Positions 4,476 to 39,411 of a stretch of DNA of 64,000 nt are shown one piece after another. Position 1 is the first letter of the stretch; each line of letters starts with the position of its first letter. A program made the translations under genes and the position numbers. The notes below the pieces were generated by a model. It had not been told where the DNA came from. It saw only the letters and a program-made list of their open reading frames with translations, and did not search any database. Source of the DNA: an uncultured Candidatus Saccharibacteria bacterium. Its GTDB lineage: Bacteria; Patescibacteriota; Minisyncoccia; Phycocordibacterales; UBA1006. The stretch spans positions 3,833 to 67,832 of the forward strand of contig CAYXKF010000002.1 in assembly GCA_964464735.1 (NCBI GenBank). Reading direction: 5' to 3'.

Positions 4476-5207
4476 CTAATCTGGAAGACCGGCAAGATCA
4501 TTTTCACTTGCAGCTATAACTAAAAAAATAAGTTTCCCATAGAAGACATAAACCCAGACAGACTGCATTGTCTCTGTATTAGCGTACCCATACGAATAGA
4601 CATTTTGATGATCAAAATTCCATCGTAATGTTTCTTGTATCTCTTTTGGTATTAAATCAATTCTCTCATAAAAAGCATGTTTCATTATAAAATCGTCTGG
4701 CATTTTTTGCTTGAACGTGTAAAAAAATAGACACTTTGTATATTTCTGTATAATCCTGTGGTAAATCTTCCAATCATCTTCAGATATATGTAAGAGCGCT
4801 TTTGGAATACGGGTTCCATCTTGATAAGTTATGTAAGCTGGAGCCATCTTTTTTAAAAGGTTTGCTGCTTTACCAGGAGCTTTCTCCATAGATCTTTTTA
4901 TTTTTCCTTTTAGAATATTGTCAGGGATGGAAGATTCTTCGCCAGAGGAGAGCGTTATCAAAAAGGTTCTAAAAAGTTCCTCATGGTGAGAATAGCTTTG
5001 GTTACAGGTTCTACATGTTGGAACAATAATTAGATCTTCGGTTCTGCCCTTAAAATAATCATCTGGAAATAAGTTTCGAGACACTGCGTGTTCTCGTGTA
5101 ATATTTTCAGTAGAAAGGCAAAATATACATCTTTTTTCTTGCTCTTCATTTGAAAATCCCATTTTATGAATATACAGCATTATGAGATTAAAGTCAGCGT
5201 TTTTCAA
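4476..5207 (-). CDS. HNH-endonuclease-domain protein (N-terminal CxxC..EH..CxxCN module plus a C-terminal domain of unknown function)
   Basis: 'CIFCLSTENITREHAVSRNLFP...PTCRTCNQSYSHH' resembles an HNH/zinc-finger nuclease motif. It lies immediately next to the tRNA-Asn 3' end. Confidence 0.45.
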   Translation of the reverse strand: MKNADFNLIMLYIHKMGFSNEEQEKRCIFCLSTENITREHAVSRNLFPDDYFKGRTEDLIIVPTCRTCNQSYSHHEELFRTFLITLSSGEESSIPDNILKGKIKRSMEKAPGKAANLLKKMAPAYITYQDGTRIPKALLHISEDDWKIYHRIIQKYTKCLFFYTFKQKMPDDFIMKHAFYERIDLIPKEIQETLRWNFDHQNVYSYGYANTETMQSVWVYVFYGKLIFLVIAASENDLAGLPD

Positions 5208-5366
5208 TTTGGCTCGAACCTAAGTAAAATATATAAAAACCATATTTATCAAGCCTTCTTACGAAAGCAAGGTTTTTACTCAAGAATAGATTTTTCTCCG
5301 CTCGAACCTAAAAAGCGGCTTGCCCTTAAAGAACAAAACACCACTTTCGTGGCGTCTGTTCCTTCT

Positions 5367-5441
5367 TGGCTCCGGGAGCAGGATTCGAACCTGCGACCAA
5401 TCGCTTAACAGGCGACTGCTCTACCGCTGAGCTATCCCGGA
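5367..5441 (-). tRNA. tRNA-Asn (anticodon GTT), genome-encoded CCA
   Basis: Folded by hand into a 75-nt cloverleaf: acceptor tccggga/tcccgga, D-stem gctc/gagc, anticodon stem gtcgc/gcgat with loop cTGTTaa, T-arm gcagg-ttcgaat-cctgc, discriminator g, then CCA. Confidence 0.85.
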
Positions 5442-5512
5442 ATATCTAAACTTACAAGGCCCATCTTGTAGGATGAGCCTTGCTAATATAGCAAAATCTT
5501 AAGATAAATCAA

Positions 5513-5740
5513 TTACTTGCGACCCTTGGCATATGCCGCATTTAAGGCAACACATTCGGGGGTTTTATCTTGTACCTGGCAGCGCAATTTATGCACTTCG
5601 GCCTCTAGGCTTTGGGCATATTCTCCCCCGCCGCCCAATTTATCAAACAGGTACAAAAAGCACAGCGACCCGACAATCAGGACGGTAAAGTAAATAAACG
5701 GGCGCAGGGCTCTCCAAATCATATATATCCAGTATAGCAA
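5513..5740 (-). CDS. small membrane-anchored protein, function unknown
   Basis: 75 aa, one N-terminal TM, a Gly4 stretch, and a C-terminal region with two Cys. Confidence 0.3.
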   Translation of the reverse strand: MLYWIYMIWRALRPFIYFTVLIVGSLCFLYLFDKLGGGGEYAQSLEAEVHKLRCQVQDKTPECVALNAAYAKGRK

Positions 5741-5767
5741 AACCGCCGGCTTTATAAAGCGGCGGTT
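5741..5767 (-). terminator. putative terminator hairpin downstream of ndk
   Basis: aaccgccg-(11 nt loop)-cggcggtt 8-bp stem just 3' of the ndk stop; weak T-run. Confidence 0.35.
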
Positions 5768-5778
5768 GTTGCAAGTAA

Positions 5779-6363
5779 TTACATGTCGATACCAAAGCGT
5801 TTGTATTCGAAGGTCTTGATGTCCCCGAACCAGTGCTTGATTTCGTGCGCCGCTTCTTCGGCAGTTTCAGAACAGTGTACGATGTTCATAACCGCGCGCT
5901 TTTCTTTGTTGGCCATTGCAGGCGAATCGATTGAAAAGTCTCCACGGATGGTTCCCACTTCGGCCAAGTATGGCATGGTTGGACCGGCAATCTTGCGTAC
6001 CACATCTACGGCATGGACACCTTGCACTACCATCTTTACCAACGGTGCAGATGTCATGTAGTCGATAAGCCACTTGCGGATTTCGGGACCGATCTTTGCT
6101 GCGTCAGTTGTGCCAAAGTCAGCTTGTGCATCGTATCCATATTTTTCGTAGGTCGAAAGCGTCTTGTTTCCTAAACGAGTAATCCATTCTTCACTTTTTG
6201 GATAGTGGTCGTTAATCTGATCGAATGATGGCTGAAACATTTCAAGCGCAACGATCTTAAGATCGCGTTGTTCAAGTCGTTTGATCACTTCGCCAGTCAG
6301 GCCTTTCATGACGCCGTCAGGCTTAAGCATTACATATGTTTTTTCTTCTTTCGGGTTGTACAT
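5779..6363 (-). CDS. ndk: nucleoside diphosphate kinase
   Basis: 'VMLKPDGV' nucleotide-binding start and the catalytic 'NIVHCSETAEEAAHEIKHWFG' (NxxHgSDS-type) motif. The ATG at 6363 is chosen over the longer ORF start. Confidence 0.85.
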   Translation of the reverse strand: MYNPKEEKTYVMLKPDGVMKGLTGEVIKRLEQRDLKIVALEMFQPSFDQINDHYPKSEEWITRLGNKTLSTYEKYGYDAQADFGTTDAAKIGPEIRKWLIDYMTSAPLVKMVVQGVHAVDVVRKIAGPTMPYLAEVGTIRGDFSIDSPAMANKEKRAVMNIVHCSETAEEAAHEIKHWFGDIKTFEYKRFGIDM

Positions 6364-6486
6364 ATCTATATAGTTGATTGTTGAATAATGACGCAATACT
6401 AACAGATGAGACAAAAAAAGCAACGAAAAAGCCTCCTATTTTCAGGAAGCCTCTCATTTTGACCTTTGATCGCTCATTATTACACT

Positions 6487-6717
6487 TTAGATGTTTTCAG
6501 CCCAGCTGAACCATCTTTTTGTGCGGCTATAGAGAAAATCTGTCGGTATTGGTAAATACTGGACTGTAGTGCTTACCAGAATTACCGCAAATCCTCCCAT
6601 AGCATTTTCAACCGTTGCTCCAGCAAACATACAGATAAAGCATGCTCCGATAATTGCCAGAATAGAGTTGACCCTTAGAGCGAACCATAAACAGGTCCAT
6701 TGATCCTTTGTATTCAT
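6487..6717 (-). CDS. small membrane protein (2 TM), function unknown
   Basis: 76-aa hydrophobic ORF. Confidence 0.3.
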   Translation of the reverse strand: MNTKDQWTCLWFALRVNSILAIIGACFICMFAGATVENAMGGFAVILVSTTVQYLPIPTDFLYSRTKRWFSWAENI

Positions 6718-6822
6718 AACCTAAGTTTTGAAAAATGATACCTTATTTATCAGAAAAGTCAATATTCTCAAACCCAAACAAAAACCGGCGAAAGCCGGTT
6801 TTTGTGTTTGAATATAAATAGA

Positions 6823-7293
6823 TTACCAAGCAAGGTGAGCAAACGCTTTGTTGGCATCTGCCATCTTGTGCGTATCCTCTTTCTTCTTTACCGCATTTCC
6901 TTCGTTCTTGCTTGCAAGAACAATTTCCTCGGCAAGACGCTCTGCCATTTTTGTTCCCTTTTTGCCGCGGGCTTCGCCAACGATCCATCGAAGGGCCAAG
7001 ATTGTTCGTCGGTCTGGGCGAACTTCGCGCGGAATCTGATAGTTCGAACCACCAACTCGGCGTGATCGCACCTCCATGGTCGGAGCAGCATTCTTCATCG
7101 CAAGATCAAATACTTCAAGTGGATCCTGGTTGCCGGTTTTTTCCTTGATCAGTTCAAAGGCATCGTAAACAATTGTCTGTGCAACCGTCTTTTTACCTGA
7201 CCACATGACGTAGTTCATCAGGCGAGATACTTTTTCCGAACCGTATTTCTGGTCGGCTACTACTATATTTTTTCGTTTGATTGGTCGTCGCAT
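6823..7293 (-). CDS. rpsG: 30S ribosomal protein S7
   Basis: Full-length S7 similarity; sits directly after rpsL. Confidence 0.9.
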
Positions 7294-7298
7294 ATAAA

Positions 7299-7709
7299 TT
7301 ATTTAGGTCGCTTGGTACCGTAGCGAGATCGGGCCTGTCGGCGCTTAGCAACACCTTGGGTATCAAGGCGTCCACGTACTACCGTGTAACGTACTCCAGT
7401 AAGGTCCTTAACGCGACCACCACGGATGATAACTACCGAGTGTTCCTGAAGGTTGTGTCCTTCACCAGGAATGTAAGCAGTTACTTCCATGCGGTTGGTC
7501 AAACGTACGCGGGCAATTTTTCGAAGCGCCGAGTTAGGCTTTTTAGGAGTCGTAGTCGTTACCTTAGTACATACGCCGCGCTTAAATGGAGATGCGTATG
7601 AAGTCGGCTTGTTTTCAAGCGCATTGAAACCGCGCGACAAAGCCACCGCTTTACTTTTGCGGGTTACCTTTTTTCGATTGCGGCGCACTAATTGGTTCAA
7701 TGTTGGCAT
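7299..7709 (-). CDS. rpsL: 30S ribosomal protein S12
   Basis: Near-identical to the canonical S12 core '[28 protein letters not shown]...[26 protein letters not shown]'. Confidence 0.95.
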
Positions 7710-7748
7710 AGGTGATAGATTACTTATTTTATCGTATTTAGCAAGGGC

Positions 7749-8288
7749 TTATTTTTTAAACGGAACACCAAGGTATTCGTAGAACATCTGCCCTTCTTTT
7801 TTTGATCCGGCGGTCGACACCAATGTAACAGCAAGGCTAAATACATCACGGACGTCTTCGTTTGCCGTTTCAGGGAAAATCGTATGCTCGCGGACACCGA
7901 ACGTCAGGTTACCAATGTTATCAACCGAGTCCTTTGAAAGACCGCGAAAGTCCTTAGTTCGAGGAAGCGCAATGTGGATTAGTTTATCCAAAAAGTCACG
8001 CATGCGTTCACCACGAAGTGTCACATACTGCCCTACGGCGTCACCAGTGCGGATCTTAAATCCTGCGATTGATTTTTTAGCAGCAGTAGCCGAAGGCTTT
8101 TGGCCGGTAATTTTAGCCAAACGTTCTGCAACGTGCTTTTGAAATTCACGGTCAACCTTAGCGCGCTTACCCGTACCGACGCTGATGACAATTTTTTGCA
8201 ATCGAGGAGCCGCAAGCTTATTAGTGTAGCCGCCTTGGTCTTTCAGAGCCTGATATGCATTATCCAGTTTTTGCTTCATCGTTTCCAT
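7749..8288 (-). CDS. rplE: 50S ribosomal protein L5
   Basis: L5 signature '..LTFGVREHTIFPE..' and length. Confidence 0.85.
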   Translation of the reverse strand: METMKQKLDNAYQALKDQGGYTNKLAAPRLQKIVISVGTGKRAKVDREFQKHVAERLAKITGQKPSATAAKKSIAGFKIRTGDAVGQYVTLRGERMRDFLDKLIHIALPRTKDFRGLSKDSVDNIGNLTFGVREHTIFPETANEDVRDVFSLAVTLVSTAGSKKEGQMFYEYLGVPFKK

Positions 8289-8289
8289 A

Positions 8290-8607
8290 TTACTTTATTT
8301 CTTGTCCTGAACGCTTAGTAATGCGCATCTTTTTTCCAGATACTTGCTTAAAACCAACACGCGAATGCTTGCCTGTTTTGCTGTCGACAATCATGACGTT
8401 TGATGCATGAATCGGGGTAGCCATATCGATAAGTTGCGGCTTTGCACCCTTGATGTTTGCACGCTTCTTTTTTGAAACAACACGGACACCTTCGACGATA
8501 ACCATGTTAGCATCACGAAGTACGCGTACTACGCTTCCCTTCTTTCCCTTATCTGCACCGGTCATAACCATGACGGTATCTCCTTTTTTGATCTTCAGTG
8601 ATTTCAT
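8290..8607 (-). CDS. rplX: 50S ribosomal protein L24
   Basis: KOW motif 'KIKKGDTVMVMTGADKGKKGSV'. Confidence 0.85.
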   Translation of the reverse strand: MKSLKIKKGDTVMVMTGADKGKKGSVVRVLRDANMVIVEGVRVVSKKKRANIKGAKPQLIDMATPIHASNVMIVDSKTGKHSRVGFKQVSGKKMRITKRSGQEIK

Positions 8608-8610
8608 ATA

Positions 8611-8979
8611 TTAAATAACTTCGGGTGCAAGTGATGCGATTTTCTGGAATCCTTTTTCAGCAAGTTCGCGTGGAATGGGGCCAAAGATACGTCCACCCTT
8701 AGGCTCTTTACCTTTTTCCAAAATAACGACTGCGTTTTCGTCGAAGCGAATGTACGAACCGTCCTTGCGGCGAAATGCTGTCTTTTGGCGTACAATAACT
8801 CCGCGAACAACGTCCTTCTTTTTAACTGCCTTGCGAGGTTCTGCAACCTTGATCGAAAGAACCACAATATCACCAAGCTGCGCGTAGCGGCGCTTTGACG
8901 CACCAAGCACTTTAAACACACGCCCGTGCTTTGCACCAGTGTTATCTGCAATTAAGATGTTTGAGCCTTCTTGAATCAT
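8611..8979 (-). CDS. rplN: 50S ribosomal protein L14
   Basis: '[17 protein letters not shown]' and overall L14 similarity. Confidence 0.9.
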
Positions 8980-8983
8980 ATAA

Positions 8984-9253
8984 TTATGCGGTTGCTACGA
9001 TATACGACTTGTCTTTTGAAATCGGGCGGCATGCCTTAATTTTAACGGCAGTACCAGGCATGATGTTCGCAGCATCGTCGGCATGTACTTTAAATTTCTT
9101 ACTAACGGTGTAGTACTTTCCGTATCGAGGGTGCTTGATAAAACGATCAATCTTAACGATCAATGTTTTTTGCATCTTGTTTGAAACAACGACACCTGAA
9201 ATCAGTTTCGCTTTTGCCTCGGTCTTTGGTTTTGCGGTAATGGTTTTTTTCAT
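8984..9253 (-). CDS. rpsQ: 30S ribosomal protein S17
   Basis: 89 aa, S17-like, positioned between L29 and L14. Confidence 0.8.
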
Positions 9254-9262
9254 AAATAGTGA

Positions 9263-9439
9263 TTATGCGGCCTTTTTCAAAGCGGTCTGTATTCTACTGA
9301 TTGTCGTGCGAAGCGCAAGCTTTTTAGTCGTATCCTTTTCGGTCATCGAAAATCGCATATCGCGAAGTTCGGCGCTTTTTTCGGCATATAGCTTAACAAG
9401 TTCTTCTTTGGTCTTTTTAGCGATATCAGGGTATTTCAT
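9263..9439 (-). CDS. rpmC: 50S ribosomal protein L29
   Basis: Not in the ORF track because it is under 60 aa. Manual translation of the minus strand gives MKYPDIAKKTKEELVKLYAEKSAELRDMRFSMTEKDTTKKLALRTTISRIQTALKKAA, which is L29-like and sits between rplP and rpsQ. Confidence 0.75.
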   Translation of the reverse strand: MKYPDIAKKTKEELVKLYAEKSAELRDMRFSMTEKDTTKKLALRTTISRIQTALKKAA

Positions 9440-9443
9440 ATAA

Positions 9444-9872
9444 TTAAATGGTGATCTCGCGTGATACGACTGATACCTTTACTGGAAGTTTTGCTCCTGC
9501 CTTGCGAAGTGCTTCACGTGCGATCGCTTCGGTAACGTTATCAACTTCAAACAACAATCGCCCTGGCTTTACTTCAAAGCAAAAACCTTTCGGGTCTCCT
9601 TTACCTGAACCCATGGGAGTTTCGGCACCCTTTTGGGTAACTGGTCGGTCAGGAAAGACGCGAATCCAGTAGGTTCCGTTTTTACCAAGAGTTCGAGAAA
9701 CAACCTTGCGGGCAGCTTCAATTTGGTTTGAGGTAATGCGTGAACCAGTTGTTGCTTTTAGACCAAACGAACCATACGAAAGTTTCATGCCGCGGGTTTC
9801 GACAGTTTTCTTTGACTCATTGCGTCGGGCAGATTGCCATTTTCGATGTTTTACCTTCTTTGGAAACAACAT
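9444..9872 (-). CDS. rplP: 50S ribosomal protein L16
   Basis: 'MLFPKKVKHRKWQ...' and full-length L16 similarity. Confidence 0.9.
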   Translation of the reverse strand: MLFPKKVKHRKWQSARRNESKKTVETRGMKLSYGSFGLKATTGSRITSNQIEAARKVVSRTLGKNGTYWIRVFPDRPVTQKGAETPMGSGKGDPKGFCFEVKPGRLLFEVDNVTEAIAREALRKAGAKLPVKVSVVSREITI

Positions 9873-9877
9873 AAGCC

Positions 9878-10552
9878 TTATTTATTGTTGCGCATCTCGT
9901 TTTCAAGCGAGTCGCCCTTGTAAATCCAAACCTTGATACCAATGTCGCCATAGGTCATGTGTGCCTTGTCAGTCGCGTAATCAATATCGGCGCGCATAAA
10001 CTGAAGCGGGATCCCGCCAAGCTTAAGCTCTTCTGAGCGTGCCATATCGGCACCGCCAAGACGACCAGTCATGTACAATTTAACACCCTTTACGCCACGA
10101 ACAGCCATAACTTTTTCGGCAGTCTGCTTCATCACAGGACGAAACGGCATGCGCTTTTCAAGAGCTTCAGCGATCATGTGCGCGACGATCTTTGCATTTG
10201 ATTCAGGTTCTGGAACATCAAGAATATCAATCTTAAGGTCTTGTGGAACTGGAATATCATGCTTCTTCATGAAAGCAAGGATGTCTTTTTTAAGTGCGTT
10301 TGCACCATCGCCACTGCGGCCAATGATCATACCTGGTCGAGAAGTCTTAATAAGGATACGTGTTGACTTTTGGTTGCGTTCGAATTCGATATCAGCAACA
10401 TAGTTTGCACGAAGCTTTTTTTCAAGGTATTCGCGCAATAAAACATCGCCTTTTAATAGGTCGTTGTACTTTTTACCTTTAGCAAACCATCGTGACTTCC
10501 AGTCGCGAAGGATGATAAGGCGTGCTGCATATGGATGGACAATCTTTGACAT
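9878..10552 (-). CDS. rpsC: 30S ribosomal protein S3
   Basis: KH-domain S3 similarity; 224 aa. Confidence 0.9.
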   Translation of the reverse strand: MSKIVHPYAARLIILRDWKSRWFAKGKKYNDLLKGDVLLREYLEKKLRANYVADIEFERNQKSTRILIKTSRPGMIIGRSGDGANALKKDILAFMKKHDIPVPQDLKIDILDVPEPESNAKIVAHMIAEALEKRMPFRPVMKQTAEKVMAVRGVKGVKLYMTGRLGGADMARSEELKLGGIPLQFMRADIDYATDKAHMTYGDIGIKVWIYKGDSLENEMRNNK

Positions 10553-10557
10553 AAAAA

Positions 10558-10992
10558 TTATTTAGCTGCTTTTTTAGTTCGCTTAGCAGGAGCCTTAGGG
10601 GCTGCCTCTTTTTTCGACGCGGTAACGGCTTTTACTGCCTTTGCCTTTGAAACCTTAGTGCCTTCGCGGACATCAGCAAGTACGACATGCACTTGCGCTG
10701 TTCGCTTGTTGATACGCGAAGCAGATCCGCGTGCGCGAGGCATAATGCGCTTCATGACAATTCCTTTGTTTACGGTAATTGACTTAACGACAAGCATATC
10801 AACTGGAACGCCTTGGTTATGCGAAGCATTTGCCGCAGCCGAATGAATCAGCTTGGCAATCGGATCGCTTGCACGCTTAACAGTAAAGCCTAATGCAATC
10901 AATGCATCAGGAACACGCTTACCCTTAACGGTATTTGCAACAACGCGGACTTTGCGTGGTGATTGTCGGTAGTTTTTAAGAAAAGCTTCCAT
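10558..10992 (-). CDS. rplV: 50S ribosomal protein L22 (with Lys/Ala-rich C-terminal tail)
   Basis: L22 core plus a 25-aa basic tail. Confidence 0.85.
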   Translation of the reverse strand: MEAFLKNYRQSPRKVRVVANTVKGKRVPDALIALGFTVKRASDPIAKLIHSAAANASHNQGVPVDMLVVKSITVNKGIVMKRIMPRARGSASRINKRTAQVHVVLADVREGTKVSKAKAVKAVTASKKEAAPKAPAKRTKKAAK

Positions 10993-11001
10993 ATATCAAT
11001 A

Positions 11002-11358
11002 TTATTTCTTAGCTGCGGCCTTAGGGTCGGCAGTTGCGGCTTTGGCAGCCTTAGCTGCTGCAATGTCAGCTTCCTTGGCTTTTTGGTCGATATCTTTTTG
11101 CATCTTACCTCCGTGTCGGTGGAAAGTCTTAGTTGGAGCGAATTCACCCAGGCGGTGACCGATCATGTCTTCGGTAACTAAAACAGGAATGTGCTTTTTA
11201 CCGTTATAAACGCCAAAAGTAAAACCAACCATTTCAGGGCTGATTTGGCACGCGCGGTACCACGTCTTAATAACCCCCGTTTCTTGAGGCTTTTTGCCGG
11301 CGATCTTCTTTAGAAGTCGGGCAAGAATGTATGGTCCTTTGTATAGTGAGCGTGTCAT
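11002..11358 (-). CDS. rpsS: 30S ribosomal protein S19 (with Lys/Ala-rich C-terminal extension)
   Basis: '[10 protein letters not shown]...[13 protein letters not shown]' S19 core; ATG at 11358 chosen. Confidence 0.85.
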
Positions 11359-11473
11359 ATCTTTTTGCAATAAAAAGAGCTCGGTAATGAGCTACGAGCG
11401 CTATACTATATCAACGACCCTTAAATGTCAAATACTGCTTAGTTTTCCGACGCTTGCCAAAAAAGCTTATATT

Positions 11474-12358
11474 TTACTTGCTACGTATGGCGTTTTTGCC
11501 ATCCAGGGCATATACGATGGTTCCGTCGGTTTGGGTCGAAATTGGCGTAATACCAAGTGCCTTCACAAAAGAGATAATTTCGGGTGCCGGATGATTATAT
11601 TTATTACCCCGCCCCGCCGACACAATGGCAACATCAGGCGACACTGCACGCAAAAACTCGACCGAACTGGATGTTTTTGACCCATGGTGGCCAAGTTTTA
11701 AAACATCAGCATCGACAACTGAAGGCTGGTACAGCGAAACTATTTGATGTTCATTTTGCCGCGACGCATCGCCGGTAAGCATGACTGAAGAATTACCATA
11801 CACCAGCTTTGCAACGATCGAATGCTCGTTGGTATCAGAAAATGCAGTGTCAATAAATGGATGCAGGATATCTAAATAAATTCCGCGCTGGTCATCAAGT
11901 ATCACGCGCATGCCCGCAAGCGCTTCAAGCTGTTCTTCAGTATCAAGTTCGGCAATTAAACTTGTCCAAGCACCCGAATCCCCTTTAATATTGCCTGGCT
12001 CCATAAAACGCTTGACCTTATAGTCGCGTAACACATCAACTAGGCCCGCGATATGATCACTATCAGGATGCGTTGCAATAACTAAATCGATCGAATGGTC
12101 AAAAAGCGGCATAGTGCCCCTCAGTCGTTGCAAGACCGATGCGTCAGGAACGCCATCAATTAAAATTTGCACTCCATTAGGTGCTTCGATAAATATTGCA
12201 TCGCCCTGCCCTATGTCAAAAAACGACACAGAGAGCATGTCGGATGAATTAAGTTTTTGATGCATACCAAAAGCAGCAATGCATGCGACTAGGGTAAAAA
12301 TAAAAAGAACAATCAGCGAACCGAACAGGACAAATGTTGTATTTATGACGCGAGCCAT
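11474..12358 (-). CDS. membrane-anchored MBL-fold metallo-hydrolase, ComEC C-terminal (beta-lactamase-like) domain homolog encoded as a stand-alone gene
   Basis: N-terminal TM anchor followed by the ComEC-type MBL motifs 'FFDIGQGDAIFIE', 'HPDSDHIAG' and 'LKLGHHGSKTSSS'. Confidence 0.7.
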   Translation of the reverse strand: MARVINTTFVLFGSLIVLFIFTLVACIAAFGMHQKLNSSDMLSVSFFDIGQGDAIFIEAPNGVQILIDGVPDASVLQRLRGTMPLFDHSIDLVIATHPDSDHIAGLVDVLRDYKVKRFMEPGNIKGDSGAWTSLIAELDTEEQLEALAGMRVILDDQRGIYLDILHPFIDTAFSDTNEHSIVAKLVYGNSSVMLTGDASRQNEHQIVSLYQPSVVDADVLKLGHHGSKTSSSVEFLRAVSPDVAIVSAGRGNKYNHPAPEIISFVKALGITPISTQTDGTIVYALDGKNAIRSK

Positions 12359-12918
12359 TCTTTGTATGCGGTGATAATTTTCTCTACGACCGTATCAAGA
12401 TTGTTTTCAGAAAGACCGGTATCAATCACAAGATCATATTGCGAAATGTCGCTCATATCGACATCATATAGATTCTTATACCGCTGCGTATCACGCTCAA
12501 GACGGCTGATTATTTTTGCCTTCAATTCTTGAGGAGTCTCGATACGATCTTCACTTTGCGAACGCAGTGGGTCGTTTTTCATACTTTCAAGAATACGTCC
12601 AACTGCAATATTAGGATCAAGATCAAGATATACCTTAAACGAATCAGGAATCCAAAAAAAGCCCAAACGCGAATCAAGTACTAACTTTTCTTCGTTGCCA
12701 CAATCACGAACCATCTGGTCGGTCTCGCGATCAGCCTCGGGGTGCGTTTCGGCGTAGACCATATATTCGGCAATTCCCATATTATGGCGCAATGCTCCGG
12801 CGCGCTGAAAGTCTCCAGATGATTTGTGAGTATATCCAAGCAGTGCAGCAATACGTTTTCCGGCACTACTTTTGCCGCTTCCATTCTTGCCATTGATGGT
12901 AATAATGGTTTTTTTCAT
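12343..12918 (-). CDS. cmk: cytidylate (CMP/dCMP) kinase, short archaeal-like type
   Basis: P-loop 'ITINGKNGSGKSS' and NMP-kinase architecture; 191 aa; overlaps the next gene by 16 nt. Confidence 0.65.
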   Translation of the reverse strand: MKKTIITINGKNGSGKSSAGKRIAALLGYTHKSSGDFQRAGALRHNMGIAEYMVYAETHPEADRETDQMVRDCGNEEKLVLDSRLGFFWIPDSFKVYLDLDPNIAVGRILESMKNDPLRSQSEDRIETPQELKAKIISRLERDTQRYKNLYDVDMSDISQYDLVIDTGLSENNLDTVVEKIITAYKEWLAS

Positions 12919-13089
12919 ATGGCGCGAGTATACCGTATTTTGTGATACAATGCATTATTATCCATTTATTTCATATATTGGTATTACTATTTTGAGAAGT
13001 TTTCAGCTGGTAACAGGTTGTCACTTAGCAAAACTCAAAAGTTATGTTCTGAAAACTGCGAGAAATAGTAATGCAAACTCAACACCATT

Positions 13090-13671
13090 ATGATAACCGA
13101 AAAAACATTTTCATTCCCTTCCGACCTAAAAGGCATCTCACAAGAAACCATGGCCGAGCATCTAAAGCTCTATGCTGGTTATGTAAAACACGCAAATTTA
13201 GCATTGGCGCATATTGAAGAATTAAGTAAAGATGTTGAAAAAAATACCTACGAAATTGGCGAACTGTCACGCCGCTTTAGTTTTGAATACAATGGCATCA
13301 AGAACCACGAATATTATTTTGAGCAGCTTGAAAACGGTGCACACCCACTTACTACTGGCAGCGCACTTGAAATAAAGATCAATAACCAGTGGGGATCCTT
13401 CGACCAATGGCTTACCGCATTTAAACTTTTGACAAAAACCCGCGGTATCGGCTGGGCAGTTTTGTATTACGATAGAGACCGCGACATGCTTTTTAACGTC
13501 TGGGTCGACGAACAGCATCTGGGTCACCTAAATAGTTGCCAATTTATTTTTGGTATCGATATGTGGGAACATTCGTACGTAAAAGATTACCTTCCCAGCG
13601 GCAAGGCAAAATATATTGATGAATACATCGAACAAGTAAATTGGGGTGTTGTTGAAAAACGAATGGCGTAA
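13090..13671 (+). CDS. Fe/Mn superoxide dismutase family protein (divergent)
   Basis: The C-terminal 'GIDMWEHSYVKDY' matches the SOD 'D-x-WEH-x-Y-Y' metal-ligand motif, and the mid-protein 'NHEYYF' matches the 'NH-x-F/Y-W' His ligand motif. The N-terminal His pair is only partly conserved. Confidence 0.55.
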   Translation: MITEKTFSFPSDLKGISQETMAEHLKLYAGYVKHANLALAHIEELSKDVEKNTYEIGELSRRFSFEYNGIKNHEYYFEQLENGAHPLTTGSALEIKINNQWGSFDQWLTAFKLLTKTRGIGWAVLYYDRDRDMLFNVWVDEQHLGHLNSCQFIFGIDMWEHSYVKDYLPSGKAKYIDEYIEQVNWGVVEKRMA

Positions 13672-13672
13672 C

Positions 13673-13703
13673 AAAAAAGCCGGACCTATGGTCCGGCTTT
13701 TTT
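13673..13703. terminator. bidirectional rho-independent terminator between convergent genes
   Basis: aaaaaa-gccggacc-tat-ggtccggc-tttttt; overlaps the stop codon of the minus-strand gene. Confidence 0.7.
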
Positions 13704-14496
13704 AATGCTCATGCGGTGGACGCGTATGGCGCTTGACCCACATTGCCAAATGAATGACATAGATCGAAAGGAATATCAGTGCGACCGTAAGGACAATAAT
13801 TGCAATCAGCGCGAACTTGGTAAACGATATCAGCATCGCCATTTGCGTTACCAACTGCTGGAATGCCAGTTCAGTCGGTGTTGGGCCTTGTGGTATTTGT
13901 ACGACGGGGACAGTAAAGACACCTTCGCTCTCGGTTACAACCGGCTTTGTTTCTTCAACCGGTGTCGGCTTAGATGGCACAATAACCGCAGGCTTTAATG
14001 TGTAAGTTCCGGTACCATAGGTGCGCAATACATCGCTTCCGGTTCCATCGTTTGCCAATACTGCACCGCTCGTGAACGCCAATTCGGCAGTTCCTGTTTT
14101 TTTAACCCTAAAGGTAACTTTAAAAAGTTCGCCGCTGTTTCCCTGAAAACCACCAATTGCTACTCCTTCAAAGTTAATGACACCGTCAGACGTACGCACT
14201 GTTGGGCCCGCCGCGCCGGGTGGAAGCCACTGGTCGATGATCGAATTTGATTTTGATGACGAGACATATTCAAGCATCTCGCGCGGATAACGGATCGTGC
14301 CTGAAAAGGCATTTACTGACGCATCAGTACTTGAAGTAACAACCGAGACCGTAAACGTCTTTCCTACCTCGAAACTTCCTGATGACGGCGAAAAACCAAG
14401 CGATGCCGCAAAGGCGCTGCCTGGAAACAACAACACCGCTGCAACAAATCCAGCTGCGATTACTGACGATGAAAGAATGTTACGAAAGATTTTCAT
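13702..14496 (-). CDS. cohesin-like domain surface protein with signal peptide and C-terminal TM anchor
   Basis: Signal peptide (..GSAFA-ASL). A ~140-aa region follows the cohesin beta-sandwich spacing pattern (G.F.VG.TFTV.V....VNA..G.I.YP.E.LE ... GELFKVTFRVKKTGTAELAF). A Pro/Thr linker and C-terminal TM with a basic tail complete the protein. Confidence 0.55.
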   Translation of the reverse strand: MKIFRNILSSSVIAAGFVAAVLLFPGSAFAASLGFSPSSGSFEVGKTFTVSVVTSSTDASVNAFSGTIRYPREMLEYVSSSKSNSIIDQWLPPGAAGPTVRTSDGVINFEGVAIGGFQGNSGELFKVTFRVKKTGTAELAFTSGAVLANDGTGSDVLRTYGTGTYTLKPAVIVPSKPTPVEETKPVVTESEGVFTVPVVQIPQGPTPTELAFQQLVTQMAMLISFTKFALIAIIVLTVALIFLSIYVIHLAMWVKRHTRPPHEH

Positions 14497-15394
14497 GACG
14501 CTTCAGTGCTTTTCGTATTATCGCATAGGCGAACACGATTGCAACGGTAGCGAGCAACGCGATAACCGCAAACGATCGAATGCGAATTGCATTTGGAAGT
14601 TTGGTTTTAGTAACGGTCTGATTACCCGCTTGGTCGACTGCTTTTACCAACACCGAAAATGCACTATATGGCTGACGAAGTTTGTATGGACTTGTTGCGA
14701 CACGCCACGTAAGCAGATTTTCTTTTACTTCGAAGTGTTCGATGCCCGAACCCTGATCAGAGGCGTCAAACAAAACCGTAAGATGCCCATCAAAAAGATT
14801 TTCATCTTGCACTATGATCGGCATCATCATAACTGGCTGCACAGTATCATTGATTGCATATTCTTTAGGCACCAACTTTGCATCTGCGCGTATCGGAAAT
14901 GCAGCCATGCGCACAGTGGCAGCACTTCCAGCACCATCGTGCACCAACAACTGTGCATCCTTGATTTCAATCATTCCCGCGCCGGCGTTGGTTGCCTTAA
15001 GGATAAGCCGAACTACACGGCCCGGAAGAATATTTTTTGGCGACCGCGGATCAATGAGACCCGAAAACCCGCCAGGGACAATGCCTGAAAGCCTTACTGC
15101 ATTTCCCGACACACTGGCGCGTGAAATCCATGTAGGAACAATCGAATCATTATCAAGCGACCGTACAAAAGTAAAATTCTGAGGGATCGAAACTGCAAGC
15201 GAAATTGCATTAATATTTTGATTTTCAGGATCAAGCATGACATCAACAGCGAACTCTTGGCCAATGTGCACAGCTTGGGTATTTGACTGCAAAAAAAGTT
15301 CGGCCGCATGCACCCCCGGTGCTGCGAAAAACAGCGCAGCAATAACAAGCGTCATAAAAATGTATGCAGAAATTTTTATAAGGGTATGATTCAT
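14480..15394 (-). CDS. cohesin-like domain surface protein with signal anchor and C-terminal TM anchor
   Basis: After 'MNHTLIKISAYIFMTLVIAALFFAAPGVHA' the region 'HIGQEFAVDVMLDP..NINAISLAVSIP..FTFV ... GRVVRLILKATNAGAGMIEIKDAQLL' is cohesin-like. There is a C-terminal TM and KRHENLS tail. ATG at 15394 chosen over the longer ORF. Confidence 0.5.
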   Translation of the reverse strand: MNHTLIKISAYIFMTLVIAALFFAAPGVHAAELFLQSNTQAVHIGQEFAVDVMLDPENQNINAISLAVSIPQNFTFVRSLDNDSIVPTWISRASVSGNAVRLSGIVPGGFSGLIDPRSPKNILPGRVVRLILKATNAGAGMIEIKDAQLLVHDGAGSAATVRMAAFPIRADAKLVPKEYAINDTVQPVMMMPIIVQDENLFDGHLTVLFDASDQGSGIEHFEVKENLLTWRVATSPYKLRQPYSAFSVLVKAVDQAGNQTVTKTKLPNAIRIRSFAVIALLATVAIVFAYAIIRKALKRHENLS

Positions 15395-15398
15395 ATAA

Positions 15399-16298
15399 TT
15401 ATCCGGTCCAATAATATGCAAGGATCGAGAAATCAACCAGCGAAACACTGCCATTGTGATTAAGGTCGATATGCGCCGGCACACCTGGTTTATTGTACCA
15501 AAATGCCATGATTGAAAAATCGACAATATTCACCCTCCCGTCGCAATTAAGGTCGCCAACAAGCGCGGCGCATGAATCAAGAGGGAGTGTTTCGGTTCCT
15601 ACATTAAATTGTACGATTTTTCCGTACGGGCTTACCTCAGCCGGCAGTACCGTTTTTGATTTCGTCTCGTGTCCACCCACCTCAAGCGGTGAAGTATCAA
15701 GCGTCAGCAAATAAGCACCTGACGTGTCGGTAGGGACCGAATGGAATGTCTCGATGGCCGAATGCACCGAGATCACGACGCTTTGGTTCGGGACGCTTTG
15801 ACCAAAAATAGTCAGGTTATCGCCTTGTTTGACCGTCGACTTATCAACTGCAATGGTTGGCGATAAAAATATCCCCGAAACGTCGGTGGTAACATTACTG
15901 GTTACCATGATCGAGAATGAGATACTTTCAGAATTGCGACCATTGGCATCAGTACTGTATACCGAAAAATTGTAATTATGTTCGGATAAATCAGAAAGCG
16001 TCACGTCAAAATGCGCATCGGGTCCACTAATTGTGGTAATTGCAACTTGACCGTTTTTTAAGATGCTTACTTTTGAAAAAGGATACGCACGGCCAGAAAA
16101 ATTCACGCTGGCGTTCCCACCCGAACCTTGGCCCGCACCTCCCCCTCCTCCTCCGCCACCGCCCCCACCTCCGGATCCAGGGCTATTTACCTGCGCAGAA
16201 ATTGAAAGGTTTTGCAAATCAGTAATGGCCAAGGTGCCGTGTGCGTACACGAAAGTGCCTATCACCAGAAGCGTAGTAAGAAAAAATACCGGCTTCAT
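15399..16298 (-). CDS. secreted protein with 14-residue poly-Gly tract, Ig-like middle region and C-terminal type-I dockerin domain
   Basis: Signal peptide. G14 is encoded by a (GGN)14 repeat. The C-terminus has two canonical Ca-binding dockerin loops, 'DLNCDGRVNIVD' and 'DLNHNGSVSLVD', each followed by 'FSI.A..W'. Confidence 0.7.
   Translation of the reverse strand: MKPVFFLTTLLVIGTFVYAHGTLAITDLQNLSISAQVNSPGSGGGGGGGGGGGGAGQGSGGNASVNFSGRAYPFSKVSILKNGQVAITTISGPDAHFDVTLSDLSEHNYNFSVYSTDANGRNSESISFSIMVTSNVTTDVSGIFLSPTIAVDKSTVKQGDNLTIFGQSVPNQSVVISVHSAIETFHSVPTDTSGAYLLTLDTSPLEVGGHETKSKTVLPAEVSPYGKIVQFNVGTETLPLDSCAALVGDLNCDGRVNIVDFSIMAFWYNKPGVPAHIDLNHNGSVSLVDFSILAYYWTG
16140..16185. repeat. simple sequence repeat (GGN)14 / C-rich homopolymeric tract inside the dockerin-protein gene
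   Basis: cctccccctcctcctccgccaccgcccccacctcc on the plus strand. Confidence 0.8.
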
Positions 16299-16307
16299 AA
16301 TAGTGCC

Positions 16308-17327
16308 TTACACTTGAGGCGGAAGATCGCCCGACTGCATCAAAGATTGTCGTGCCTGATTGATCACCCAGCGATTATAACGCCTAATGAGTGTTCGCAA
16401 GATCGTAAACAAAAGAACGATTGCAATAATAAGCACAAGCAATAATTGCCATGGGAAAACATACACCGCGGTATGTGCGGTCAGTTCACCCTGCACTTCG
16501 CTATACGTTACCAAAAGTTTTGCGCTATATCGCCCAAATGCAAAATGCTTCCACTGGTAGCCAACCGTGTTAAAAAATCCGGTAGTTGATGCTTCGCGTG
16601 CATGCTTTTTGCTATCCCATGCAACTTCAAATTTGCGAATGGTGCCAAGCGGCAACACATTTCCTTGTCCTGGGTTTGCATCAAGTTTTTGCGAAGTGAT
16701 GCCAATCATATTTTTTACGGTAATTGTCCCAGTTGGGCTTATGCGGTCACTTCCGCCATTTTGGAAACGGTAGGTAAAGTTAACTGGAAGCGAAGTGTAC
16801 AAACGCTTTTCAGGTTTAAAATCAAGCAGCGATGCACCTTCGGCAATCTCGCCATTAACGCGAAGCAGCACCAGCGTACCTACTTTATAGCCAATCGAAA
16901 CTTGTCCATTATTTTGCGCTTCTGGCGCAGTCGTGCTTAAAAAAACGCCGGCGAAGTATCCTCCAGCACGCGCGTCGGCCGGTACTGGAATCACGATGCG
17001 CACCACTTGCTGCTCGCCCGCGGCAAGCGAAATACTGGTCGGTGCTTGGATCCACGATGCAAGGCCGGTCGTACTTTCGACAAAGTTTGGAGTGCCCGAT
17101 TCGCCCTGCGCCTCAAAGTTCGCCGTTGAAAAATAAAATGTCGCCGGAGCATCTTGGTCGTTGTATATCAACATGTCCCCTGTCACCACAGTGCCTGGGT
17201 CGCCAGCGACCTCGATCTTGCTTGATGTCGTTAATGCCTTAGCCGCGTACGGAAAAAATACGCACAGCATAAGCAAAGCGACAAGAATAGTTATTGCGTA
17301 TCGATATCGATAAGTCATGCTAAGCAT
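16308..17327 (-). CDS. cell-surface protein with signal peptide and C-terminal TM anchor plus basic tail (CscA/DUF916-like topology)
   Basis: N-terminal hydrophobic signal, a ~270-aa extracytoplasmic region, then a TM 'WQLLLVLIIAIVLLFTIL' followed by RTLIRRYNRW. The topology matches the membrane-anchoring partner of WxL-type surface complexes. Confidence 0.4.
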   Translation of the reverse strand: MLSMTYRYRYAITILVALLMLCVFFPYAAKALTTSSKIEVAGDPGTVVTGDMLIYNDQDAPATFYFSTANFEAQGESGTPNFVESTTGLASWIQAPTSISLAAGEQQVVRIVIPVPADARAGGYFAGVFLSTTAPEAQNNGQVSIGYKVGTLVLLRVNGEIAEGASLLDFKPEKRLYTSLPVNFTYRFQNGGSDRISPTGTITVKNMIGITSQKLDANPGQGNVLPLGTIRKFEVAWDSKKHAREASTTGFFNTVGYQWKHFAFGRYSAKLLVTYSEVQGELTAHTAVYVFPWQLLLVLIIAIVLLFTILRTLIRRYNRWVINQARQSLMQSGDLPPQV

Positions 17328-17336
17328 GGAATGCTA

Positions 17337-18392
17337 TTAAAAGTTTGCCGTCGCGACGTACGTAAGGGCTGCGGTATAACTTCCGGCTTCGGTCGTTGGT
17401 GCAATATTGGCAATATAGTGAAGCGAATAAGTTGACGTACCGGTTGCACTTGAACCGGTTGCAAACGTTGCTGCAGTGCTGGCATTGGCATCATAACCAA
17501 AGGCTGGTGTCGCGTTGTCAGAATAGGTTGCATCAATTGAGGCACCGGTACCACCTGATACCGTCGCATAAATACCAAATTGTTCGCTGCCTGTTGTTGA
17601 AGCCGCAGGGGTTGAACCGTTAGCAGTAATGGTATTAAGCCCCGAGGTAAGCGTCGCGCCTTGGACAGTAATAGTATATCCCGAAGCACCGTTGGTTGCT
17701 ACGCCAAGGGTATGTGCAACAGTATCTGAACCGGTACCATTAGTGTCGCCTGTCGCATAGCGCGCAGCAGATGTTGAAAGCGTACCAAACCCAATCGAGT
17801 TATCCGAAATAGTAAATGTCAGTGTTTGTCCAACCGTTGCCGAAACCGCAACCACGTCATCGTCGACAATTGTTGTTGTGATTGTTCCAGAATCAGCAAA
17901 CGTACCGCCGCCAATGGTCACCGTATAACTTCCGGCAGTCGTTGGATTAGTAATTTGCTGGTCGCCAGTTGCGCCTTGCGTTGCATTAGTACCAATTTTA
18001 ATGCGCACCACCGAACCAGCGGCAATCGCGACGTTGCCGTTAGTAAACGTAATGACCGTCGATGATGTGCGCACTACACCCCATGTTGCACCCGACGGCG
18101 ACGCAGCAAGCGCCAACTGTACGCCATCATCAAGCAAATCAATATCAGTATCATCAAGTGCTCCGGGGATCGAATAGTCTGACTGAAAAGTAAGCACCAT
18201 GGTTTGCCCCGACGTAAGGCCGGTTGGTGTCGTAAAGGTAATATCGTGGTCTGAAAGCGTATTTTTTTTAACTGTTGACATCGTATCAGAAAGCGATGTT
18301 AGCGAAGCTGCGCTTACAAACGAAAACGGATACAACAAAATACTTGCAAAGATTGCAACTGCCGAGATTTTTTTAAACATGGTGTAGATCAT
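17337..18392 (-). CDS. secreted Thr/Gly/Ser-rich surface protein sharing a ~170-aa C-terminal domain with the adjacent giant protein
   Basis: Signal peptide. The C-terminal 'TLTFTISDNSIGFGTLS...SGYTITVQGATLTSG.NTI...GSEQFG...IANIAPTTEAGSYTA.LTYV.TANF' is nearly collinear with the last 170 aa of ORF 18487..24681. Confidence 0.6.
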   Translation of the reverse strand: MIYTMFKKISAVAIFASILLYPFSFVSAASLTSLSDTMSTVKKNTLSDHDITFTTPTGLTSGQTMVLTFQSDYSIPGALDDTDIDLLDDGVQLALAASPSGATWGVVRTSSTVITFTNGNVAIAAGSVVRIKIGTNATQGATGDQQITNPTTAGSYTVTIGGGTFADSGTITTTIVDDDVVAVSATVGQTLTFTISDNSIGFGTLSTSAARYATGDTNGTGSDTVAHTLGVATNGASGYTITVQGATLTSGLNTITANGSTPAASTTGSEQFGIYATVSGGTGASIDATYSDNATPAFGYDANASTAATFATGSSATGTSTYSLHYIANIAPTTEAGSYTAALTYVATANF

Positions 18393-18486
18393 AGTGTTAC
18401 ATGCGCATACGCGCTGTGCTTTTTACAGAATACTTGCTTTATTCTTTCTTGTCATCTTTTTTATGGGGATAACGCGTGAACAAAAA

Positions 18487-26202: not shown

Positions 26203-26359
26203 AATTTACAAGGAACCTTCGGCTCCAAAATATTTTCCGAAGTCCGAAGCTTGTCTAAGCGAAGCGAGTTCTGCAGGACTGAGGAAAATGTTTTGGGGCC
26301 GAAGCTATCCGAGCGAAAGCGAGTTCTGAAGGATCGTGAAAAATATAAAGGATGCGAAG
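26203..26359. repeat. intergenic region with imperfect ~35-nt direct repeats and ccgaag motifs, upstream of the comEC-led operon
   Basis: 'aagcgaagcgagttctgcaggactgaggaaaatgtt' and 'gagcgaaagcgagttctgaaggatcgtgaaaaatata', plus 'ccgaagtccgaagc' and 'gccgaagctatccgag'. Confidence 0.5.
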
Positions 26360-27085
26360 CTATTGTTTTTCTTGAAATTCTTCCATAATACTTTTTTCTT
26401 CTTCTGCCGAAAATACTTTTTTATATTTTGCCGCTTTGCCGTGCACACGCGCTTTTGTTTCGTCCCAGGTTTTATGTGTCATGATTTTTCCATCAACCAA
26501 ACTGACATAGCTGTAAGCGACTTTCTTTTCCGTAGCACTGGATGGCTTGGCTGGTCTAATATTAGTCGGCACATCCATAAATGTGTCGATTATTTTTGCA
26601 TAATCGGAAAACGAATATTGTTTCGAGAATTTTTTTTTCGAATCGGCCGCAACTGTCGCAAGCTCGTCTACCCGTTCGTTCATCGAGACCCCACTATGGC
26701 CCGATACACGCTTAACATCGCATTTCACACTTTGCATAAGTGCAAAACATTTTTTCCAAAGTTCAAGATTTTGAATAGATTCACCCGTTTGAGTCTTCCA
26801 TCCTTTCTTGATCCAGCCGAAAATCCACATGGTCATCCCCTGCGCAACATACGCCGAATCGGTATATAAAGTCATGTGTGAAATATTTTTTTTATGAGCA
26901 TGGCGCAGGGCTTCGACAACAGCTGTAAGTTCCATTGCATTATTAGTTGTCTTGGTGTCAAAACCAGCGGTTTCATACACGACTTGATTATCGGTATCGA
27001 TCAAGGCAAAACCCCACCCTCCTGGGCCTGGATTTCCCCGCGACGCACCGTCAGTAAATGCAACAACTCCTTCGTGTAATTTCAT
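26360..27085 (-). CDS. rnhA: ribonuclease HI with a C-terminal hybrid-binding-domain-like (Cauli_VI / RNase H1 N-terminal-type) module
   Basis: RNase H fold with DEDD residues ('AFTDGASRGNPGPGGWG', 'MELTAV', 'LYTDSAYV', 'HSGVSMNERVDELA'). The C-terminal 'VAYSYVSLVDGKIMTHKTWDETKARVHGKAAKYKKVFSAEEEKSIMEEF' matches the HBD consensus (Y.V..G...GIY..W.E....V.G...A.YKKF...EEA). Confidence 0.7.
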   Translation of the reverse strand: MKLHEGVVAFTDGASRGNPGPGGWGFALIDTDNQVVYETAGFDTKTTNNAMELTAVVEALRHAHKKNISHMTLYTDSAYVAQGMTMWIFGWIKKGWKTQTGESIQNLELWKKCFALMQSVKCDVKRVSGHSGVSMNERVDELATVAADSKKKFSKQYSFSDYAKIIDTFMDVPTNIRPAKPSSATEKKVAYSYVSLVDGKIMTHKTWDETKARVHGKAAKYKKVFSAEEEKSIMEEFQEKQ

Positions 27086-27519: not shown

Positions 27520-27531
27520 ACCGATACTATA

Positions 27532-28062: not shown

Positions 28063-28064
28063 GC

Positions 28065-37201: not shown

Positions 37202-37294
37202 GCTGCCATTATATCACGATAAAATAAAAATCGCTGAAATATTCATAACAAAACCCGCACCGAGGTGCGGGTTTTGAAAGTAGAATGATACTTA

Positions 37295-39214: not shown

Positions 39215-39411
39215 ATAATAATAAAAAAAACTAATAAAAAATGTCGCGACTTTTACCATCGCCATTGTATGCTTTTACTTTTACATACACAATTTTTTTC
39301 TGGGGAAAACTAACAAAAAATCTTCGCAGTAATGTGCGAAGATTTTTATTTATTAAAACTTTAAACGCCATTACCAAACGACATGTCGTTTTAATATTTA
39401 CATAGAATAAA

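Follow-up and report, generated by a model that had tools for sequence, protein, structure and literature searches.

An S19-L5 ribosomal-protein block joined to S12-S7 in a Paceibacteria-type lineage

Gene order of the locus and its recurrence in relatives

In a 64,000-nt stretch of contig CAYXKF010000002.1 (assembly GCA_964464735.1, recorded as an uncultured Candidatus Saccharibacteria bacterium), referred to here as the window, the ribosomal-protein genes from rpsS (S19) to rplE (L5) run directly into rpsL (S12) and rpsG (S7). This is very probably a genuine, vertically inherited rearrangement in a Paceibacteria-type lineage, in which the superoperon of the class is made up of autonomous modules and the S19-L5 module has been joined to the S12-S7 module. 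The arrangement is real and inherited and is not an assembly error, because both of its junctions recur in independent assemblies of diverged relatives.

The identities of the genes (Table 1) were taken from a Pfam hmmscan of the open reading frames (ORFs) of the window, with E-values from 1e-16 to 1e-58 except for L29. All genes of the operon and its flanks from cmk to ndk lie on the minus strand, with a tRNA-Asn gene beyond ndk. The nine ORFs from rpsS to rplE are consecutive and keep the canonical S10/spc order with gaps of 1-9 nt, as an earlier description made from the sequence alone (the sequence-only reading) had stated, and S12 and S7 are 5 nt apart; all 11 ribosomal-protein genes are full-length with full-profile Pfam matches, and the S19 ATG at 11358 is the start used in relatives. 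The place of L2 before rpsS is taken, at a distance of 115 nt (11359-11473), by a metallo-beta-lactamase (MBL) gene, homologues of which are named 'competence protein ComEC' by JGI, and the place of S14/S8 after rplE is taken by rpsL at a distance of 39 nt. Queries verified with Pfam from the canonical relative RAAC4_OD1_1 (L049; L numbers denote loci of relatives) were searched with tblastn against the 64 kb of the window and gave no match for L2, L23, L4, L3, S10, S14, S8, L6, L18, S5, L15, SecY or tuf. Pfam and tblastn thus bear out that MBL and cmk stand upstream without L2, L23, L4, L3 and S10, and that a 39-nt gap leads to rpsL-rpsG without S14, S8, L6, L18, S5, L15 and secY. The other large ORFs of the window, also scanned with Pfam, have unrelated functions and none matched EF-G (fusA), no direct search of the window for fusA having been made. 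These modules must therefore lie in other parts of the genome. After rpsG come a terminator, a 76-aa ORF and ndk in place of fusA-tuf; the sequence-only reading was right about ndk and about a context other than fusA/tuf, but its 'small membrane proteins' come down to this single membrane-like ORF. The ORF is missing in the relative with 94% identity in L5, where ndk follows about 120 nt after S7, and it looks like a fresh 'invasion' of the rpsG-ndk junction; in several relatives ndk is located downstream of secY-adk.

The order L24-L5-S12-S7 is found on an independent Logan contig of SRR11567520, where L5 is 100% identical, L16...L5-S12-S7-ndk in GCA_964482675.1 (L172), ERZ27283041, ERZ27283032 and SRR6837583 (L5 94% identical), and L16...L5-S12-S7 in SRR25018350 (L5 80% identical), and the L5-S12 spacer in these relatives is 39/40 nt. 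At the other junction, GCA_964482675.1 corresponds to the window gene for gene through a surface-protein cluster, a superoxide dismutase (SOD) gene in opposite orientation, cmk, MBL (72% identical), S19, L22 and S3; cmk-MBL-S19-L22 is present in SRR25018350 (MBL 61% identical) and also in SRR6837570, and MBL is adjacent to S19 in L172, L174 and L176. On a Logan contig of SRR11567520 (L171), S19 is preceded by 195 nt, enough by length alone to span the 115-nt gap. The comparison of gene order with close relatives, which the sequence-only reading had proposed as a check, therefore finds both junctions again in three or more diverged genomes, which come from different samples, and the chimeric joins at L5/S12 or S19 against which it had warned are contradicted by this recurrence; mis-assembly was rejected on the same ground.

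Furthermore, the intergenic DNAs can be aligned among the relatives and contain invariant promoter, hairpin and terminator blocks. Before S19, TTGACA-17-TAGTAT, the GTAGCTC-loop-GAGCT hairpin and the T-run that follows are invariant; in the L5-S12 spacer, CCTTGC and TAAAATAAGTAA are invariant across three species; and S7 is followed by the same terminator. A composition scan found no GC or skew step across the region, for which reason a foreign origin by composition was rejected.

Table 1. Features of the fused locus and its surroundings, with positions numbered along the window
Feature	Position	Strand	Evidence or remark
RecJ, dCMP deaminase, RNase H and ComEC membrane part, as a series	24715-29768	-	Pfam; tblastn synteny with L104, L110, L112
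RecJ	28065-29768	-	Pfam
RNase H	26360-27085	-	Pfam
ComEC membrane part (ComEC-TM; DUF4131 + Competence)	24715-26202	-	Pfam
Fe/Mn superoxide dismutase (SOD)	13090-13671	+	Pfam; conserved neighbourhood preceding S12 in relatives
cmk-like cytidylate kinase, left flank	12343-12918	-	Pfam Cytidylate_kin2/AAA_18; position kept in L172, L176
Stand-alone ComEC-type MBL, 294 aa	11474-12358	-	Pfam Lactamase_B; directly upstream of the operon
Promoter-like site TTGACA-17 nt-TAGTAT	11403-11431	-	Invariant in three species; class-typical for S19
5' leader hairpin AGCTC-loop-GAGCT, then T-run	11378-11393	-	Conserved Paceibacteria S19 leader motif; no Rfam match
rpsS (S19)	11002-11358	-	Pfam 8e-31
rplV (L22)	10558-10992	-	Pfam 5e-31
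rpsC (S3)	9878-10552	-	Pfam S3_C + KH_2
rplP (L16)	9444-9872	-	Pfam 1e-40
rpmC (L29)	9263-9439	-	Weak Pfam match (22.9 bits, under the 24.5 cut-off); canonical slot
rpsQ (S17)	8984-9253	-	Pfam 2e-22
rplN (L14)	8611-8979	-	Pfam 3e-47
rplX (L24)	8290-8607	-	Pfam KOW + ribosomal_L24
rplE (L5), final gene of the S19-L5 module	7749-8288	-	Pfam; homologues
L5-S12 spacer, 39 nt, fusion joint	7710-7748	-	CTTGC (7745-7741)-N16-AGTAA (7724-7720)
rpsL (S12)	7299-7709	-	Pfam 3e-37
rpsG (S7), final gene of the fused operon	6823-7293	-	Pfam 4e-58
Intrinsic terminator, 12-bp stem + T-run	6778-6805	-	-20.9 kcal/mol; conserved in the 94% relative
Hydrophobic ORF, 76 aa	6487-6717	-	Own promoter-like and terminator-like sites
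ndk, right flank	5779-6363	-	Pfam NDK

Promoters, leaders and the extent of the operon

Upstream of S19, members of the class share a promoter-like site, in which TTGACw is followed after 17 nt by the extended -10 element TTTGCTAgTAT, and, within a few bases of it, a hairpin of the form RGCUC-loop(4-6)-GRGCY with a U-rich tract up to the start codon. This leader lies about 30-90 nt upstream of S19, the start codon of which has no obvious Shine-Dalgarno sequence, and it is seen also in L014, L017, L029, L049, L051, L065 and others. The combination of TTGAC-N-TAnnWT with the RGCTC...GRGCY hairpin precedes S19 in 52-53 of 71 loci; promoter-like site and hairpin are present in 14 of the 15 loci where L2 is still adjacent, and the same motif was found upstream of S10 in none of 33 loci. 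The L2/S19 junction is predicted to be a transcription-unit boundary. A single stem position of the hairpin covaries (A-U 44, G-U 4, G-C 3) and the other stem positions are invariant. The leader is a candidate for an undescribed ribosomal-protein leader or 5' stabiliser; a stabilising 5' hairpin, an attenuator and a protein operator are the candidate roles. Between the U-tract of the leader and the ATG of S19, the window alone carries a 12-nt insertion, ATTGCAAAAAGA, in 11359-11377 (minus strand), which neither the 94% nor the 80% relative has; by pairing with the U-tract it can give a second hairpin in the minimum free energy (MFE) fold.

Consensus scans, folding and conservation give, as a prediction from the sequence, one upstream promoter, no inner terminator and one end terminator, from which we infer a single 11-gene transcription unit S19...L5-S12-S7 extending from the promoter at 11431-11403 to the terminator at 6805-6778. 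Transcription would probably start just downstream of the -10 element at 11408-11403, which would place the conserved hairpin (11393-11378) at the very 5' end of the transcript, and RNA polymerase would then read S19...L5 into S12-S7 and stop at 6805-6778. This read-through is expected because the spacer between rplE and rpsL has no terminator-like structure: neither a terminator nor a stable hairpin was found there by consensus scan and folding (-1.3 kcal/mol). The spacer carries CTTGC-N16-AGTAA (7745-7720) only about 10 nt from the S12 ATG. In the class, S12 is preceded by CTTGC-N16/17-AGTA in 14 of 19 members, then by a hairpin and a U-tract, with 39-72 nt of leader between AGTA and ATG, and CTTGC-N16/17-AGTA occurs 4 times in both strands of the 64-kb window. 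The spacer motif is a relic of the class-typical S12 promoter from which the leader has been deleted, and it may add some transcripts of S12-S7 only.

Such a relic also gives rise to the alternative that the two modules are adjacent without forming one operon, S12-S7 being transcribed mainly from the spacer as a near-leaderless mRNA, in which case the adjacency would have little regulatory meaning. The invariance of CTTGC-N16-AGTAA and TAAAATAAGTAA in three species speaks for it, as does the locus L026, where the modules are clearly separate and both terminators and a full S12 promoter intervene. However, read-through from the S19 promoter is to be expected anyway across a spacer with no terminator or stable hairpin, and the -10-like hexamer is poor (TAATCT) and stands about 10 nt from the ATG, so we regard separate transcription as unlikely, with some weight left to it, and retain the single 11-gene unit.

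In other members of the class S14 has a leader of its own kind, an element with several helices that lies about 110 nt upstream of S14, between rplE and rpsN (L014, about 10890-11000; L018, L024, L028, L029, L017 and L025), for example GAUCUGUGUUUCUCC...stem-loop...GAAAAUACACAAGAUAUC. Its GAGAUAU tail is conserved, its MFE ranges from -20 to -39 kcal/mol and it shows apparent compensatory changes; it may be an operator of the S8/S14 type. Rfam searches of the window, run at the gathering threshold and with E<=1, yielded tRNA-Asn, which reaches the threshold, and no other family; the loci of six relatives gave no match, and the S19, S12 and S14 leaders match no Rfam family. A known ribosomal-protein leader RNA was accordingly rejected for the operon, no Rfam covariance model matching upstream of it.

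Junctions across the class and the path to the fusion

The best matches of L5, MBL and S7 are from Patescibacteria (records named Paceibacterota, Nomurabacteria and Parcubacteria), and outside the small lineage of the window itself they are only about 60-67% identical. Junctions of the S10-spc part were counted in 80 GTDB species-representative loci, recovered among the matches listed with an L5 profile, and those of the str part in 80 metagenome loci recovered with S7, a sampling centred on the S7 of the window. A junction was called open when neighbouring ribosomal-protein genes are more than 600 nt apart, and L2/S19 or L5/S14 was called separated when the partner gene was not found within at least 3 kb. 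Many relatives in the class keep the full orders tuf-S10...L2-S19...L5-S14...SecY and S12-S7-fusA-tuf, and S12-S7-fusA-tuf-S10... is the order usually retained. The S19...L5 block is uninterrupted in every one of the 80 GTDB loci mapped. At the two junctions that are fully parted in the window, the relatives have small inserts: L2/S19 is open in 29 of 44 loci and separated in 6, and L5/S14 is open in 35 of 58 and separated in 8. Between tuf and secY there are 18 other junctions, and at each of them such a gap is seen in only 0-1 of 35-77 loci. Among the S7-anchored loci, 12 have S7 next to fusA, and the S7/fusA junction is invaded in 6 others and separated in 5; fusA/tuf is adjacent in 2 and invaded in 6. 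The three breaks named by the sequence-only reading (L2/S19, L5/S14 and S7/fusA) stand, but its 'universally conserved' goes too far for this class, as these junctions are commonly open or invaded in Paceibacteria-type genomes. For the same reason, the window stands at the extreme of a pattern seen across the class and is not a singular event.

The inserts are heterogeneous and lie on either strand. A diacylglycerol (DAG) kinase gene is inserted before S19 in 16 loci and genes for pilin-like N_methyl proteins after L5; Kelch, Band_7, SMC and DUF1543 proteins are encoded by others. L179, an L026-like locus, has a Gp49-type toxin with a helix-turn-helix antitoxin between L23 and L2 and a DNA methylase with an R.HinP1I endonuclease between L2 and S19 (4526-7147 and 8209-12411), and L177 has Kelch and DUF4907 proteins between L2 and S19 (12117-15682). 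Besides DAG kinase and pilin-like genes, a toxin-antitoxin pair and a restriction-modification system are thus among the invaders. One contig, L078 (JAYVLF010000020.1), carries L5 followed by tuf-S10-L3-L4-L23-L2-S19...L24, as if circularly permuted, which could be a wrap-around or duplication artefact of the assembly or a real adjacency of L5 to tuf.

Read most simply, these data mean that the cluster is expressed module by module in Paceibacteria, and that the boundaries between the modules are for this reason free for insertion and parting. The modules of the class would be S12-S7, fusA, tuf-S10-L3-L4-L23-L2, S19...L5 and S14...SecY; their junctions would tolerate inserts and then come apart, and in the lineage of the window S19-L5, with its own promoter and 5' hairpin, would have come to stand directly before S12-S7, the DNA between them being trimmed to 39 nt.

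The surroundings of the operon bear on how this came about. In most bacteria rpoC is directly upstream of rpsL. In the class, an M50 peptidase gene on the same strand stands in this place in 33 of 33 informative S7-anchored loci (L091-L135), and no M50 homologue was found within the 64-kb window. A subset of the relatives (L104, L110, L112, L126, L132 and L135) has the order RecJ, RNase H, ComEC membrane part, SOD in opposite orientation, MBL, M50, S12, S7 and in some cases fusA. The window has the same series of RecJ, RNase H, ComEC membrane part, SOD and MBL, now before S19...L5-S12-S7, so that compared with these relatives the S19-L5 module stands in the place of M50; judged by this synteny, the upstream neighbourhood of the window is the ancestral one. 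Additional to the series in the relatives are cmk and an 11-kb cluster of probable cell-surface proteins (13702-24681, minus strand), with a 2064-aa giant carrying a G8 domain and with Big_6/dockerin and cohesin proteins, which sits between the ComEC membrane gene and SOD and is conserved in GCA_964482675.1. The two parts of ComEC are about 12 kb apart in the window, and in relatives only the opposite-strand SOD gene lies between them. The sequence-only reading was sound about the breaks and missed the relative-type neighbourhood of S12 and the promoter relic in the spacer. Because both are retained, the event is better described as a reshuffling of modules followed by operon fusion than as random scrambling. 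ComEC stands before S19 with its MBL part in the lineage of the window and with its membrane part in L007, but it was rejected as a signature of the clade, since in other close relatives S19 is preceded by Band_7, SMC or RNase J-like genes with no common neighbour.

L026 (CAZVLM010000014.1), the closest GTDB representative among the matches listed (67.6% concatenated identity), has L4-L23, an insert, L2, a second insert, S19...L5, a terminator, a 79-aa ORF, another terminator, a CTTGCA-type S12 promoter, a leader of about 190 nt, S12-S7, two ORFs and fusA, which plausibly represents an intermediate state. The order of steps that we infer is that the S19-L5 and S12-S7 modules would first have been brought side by side, and that deletion of the terminator or terminators and of the S12 leader would then have made them a single unit. 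Either S12-S7(-fusA) would have moved behind L5, with tuf...L2 excised later, or S19-L5 would have been inserted in front of S12; the data favour neither route. In L177 and L179, which are close to L026, tuf is not preceded by fusA, and the ComEC membrane gene lies some 6 kb upstream of it; the order of events is not settled thereby.

Other origins of the locus have also to be considered. Acquisition of the S19-L5 block from outside, by xenologous replacement or with a mobile element that landed beside S12, would agree with the different genomic context of the block in different relatives and with the defence and toxin-antitoxin genes at the junctions in some genomes. But the block has before S19 the promoter and leader typical of the class, the proteins that it encodes are most similar to those of Paceibacteria, and it shows neither a composition shift nor flanking repeats, an integrase or an insertion sequence (IS), so that such a transfer is very improbable. 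A repeat search of 5000-13500 found short repeats at chance level only and none flanking the block, and no integrase or transposase was found with Pfam among the neighbouring genes; a mobile-element signature at the breakpoints was rejected, as there are no flanking repeats, IS remnants, integrase or transposase. It is equally hard to believe that the locus is a partial segmental duplicate, with a canonical full cluster elsewhere in the genome. Segmental duplications of partial clusters are documented in other bacteria (Brandis 2021, PMC8046335), and the inspection covers 64 kb of the genome; against this, all 11 genes are full-length with full Pfam profiles, S19-L5 likewise stands isolated in several relatives whose flanks extend over 10 kb (L011, L050), and the arrangement is kept down to 80% L5 identity, which is unexpected for a redundant copy in a reduced genome. 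A chimeric or mis-joined assembly at L5/S12 or MBL/S19 has next to no probability, since, even if the source is evidently a contig of the metagenome-assembled genome (MAG) type and conserved ribosomal clusters can attract mis-joins, the junctions are reproduced across assemblers, samples and genomes differing by 6-39% at the protein level, with alignable spacers that contain conserved functional blocks and with no step in composition.

Several points weigh against the inherited fusion of two modules as set out here. The near relatives L007, L011, L020, L021, L026 and L032 do not have the class-typical S19 leader that the window keeps, for which reason the branching order of the clade is provisional and the L5-S12 adjacencies of L026 and of the window may or may not share an origin; the tree of the lineage is a neighbour-joining tree with long branches and without support values. 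Moreover, the 80 L5 loci were picked by similarity to the L5 of the window, so the statistics describe that neighbourhood of the tree and not all Patescibacteria. Where the missing modules are located, and whether the genes of the locus are single-copy, lies outside the 64-kb view, and the suggested read-through from L5 to S12 has as its evidence only that the spacer lacks a terminator and folds weakly.

A further-reaching reading is possible, and we put it forward tentatively: Paceibacteria would have re-partitioned the superoperon into about five expression modules, with their own promoters and with undescribed leader RNAs acting as new autoregulatory operators, the junctions being preferred landing sites for accessory and defence genes and the window being the first re-fusion of two modules. 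The candidate leaders meant are the S19 hairpin AGCUC-loop-GAGCU with its U-tract, the S12 hairpin with its U-tract and the multi-helix element of S14.

Elsewhere in the window, rplJ-rplL (L10-L7/L12; 30855-31757, minus strand) stand alone, so that the classical cluster is broken at this link too: the genes downstream are not rpoB but a 181-aa ORF and then RecJ and others, and those upstream are not L11 or L1 but RpiB and GAPDH. The order rpsF-ssb-rpsR is canonical (48624-49822, minus strand) and is followed by efp; the 70-aa S18 gene (48624-48836), too short for the 100-aa ORF listing, was confirmed with Pfam. In addition, a region at 34457-42422 (minus strand) encodes a 914-aa homologue of TraG/VirD4-like coupling proteins beside two large proteins with peptidoglycan-binding domains, and may be part of a type IV secretion or conjugation-like machinery of Patescibacteria.

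Comparison with known systems

Few known gene orders are as stable as that of the S10-spc cluster, and the binning and phylogeny of uncultivated bacteria routinely take 16 of its proteins as a single syntenic block. Within Patescibacteria there is a large class in which this block is really three or more separable pieces, which in some lineages are scattered and partly re-fused. For the curation of MAGs this means that ribosomal markers may legitimately sit on different contigs and that breaks at L2/S19 or L5/S14 are not in themselves signs of mis-assembly. The loci also form a natural gradation, from adjacent through invaded and separated to re-fused, in which it can be asked why operon concatenation normally persists, and with the conserved leaders there are concrete candidates at hand for new cis-regulatory RNAs.

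Compared with the canonical str-S10-spc cluster of E. coli and B. subtilis, the locus has the same internal order S19...L5, the same S12-S7 pair and the same tight spacing, whereas the links L2/S19, L5/S14 and S7/fusA are interrupted and S12-S7 comes after L5 and not before fusA. In E. coli the border between the S10 and spc operons is S17/L14; the cuts in the window lie inside the two operons and not at this border. The 5 nt between S12 and S7 leave no room for an intercistronic S7 operator of the E. coli type, and the genes for L4 and S8 are outside the locus. Since the operator positions are missing or unlinked, the L4, S8 and S7 feedback circuits of E. coli cannot operate here in the same configuration. 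The ribosomal-protein operators of E. coli are described as narrowly distributed (PMC3616713).

The peculiarities of ribosomal proteins in the Candidate Phyla Radiation (CPR) and Parcubacteria are the loss of L30, the loss of L1 in the 'OD1-L1' group and the use of 16 'syntenic' ribosomal proteins for phylogeny. These reports concern gene content, whereas the case of the window is one of gene order. The S5/L15 gap exceeds 600 nt in 0 of 38 relatives, which fits the L30 loss reported for CPR (PMC5220378), no L30 query having been used. In the limited library searched, no account of a modular break-up of the cluster or of this arrangement in CPR was found, which is not proof of novelty.

The closest known process is the 'invasion-separation' by which operon clusters break up in Gammaproteobacteria and Bacilli at junctions between operons delimited as in E. 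coli (Brandis et al. 2019, PMC6735719; Brandis 2021, PMC8046335). The same two steps are seen here, as foreign genes invade a junction (29/44 and 35/58 loci) and the flanks then part in some lineages. The differences are that the permissive junctions are others, set by Paceibacteria-specific promoters, and that two modules are newly fused in the outcome. The window is thus a case closest to invasion-separation, at boundaries that are not those of E. coli, and represents a known evolutionary process and not a new kind of system.

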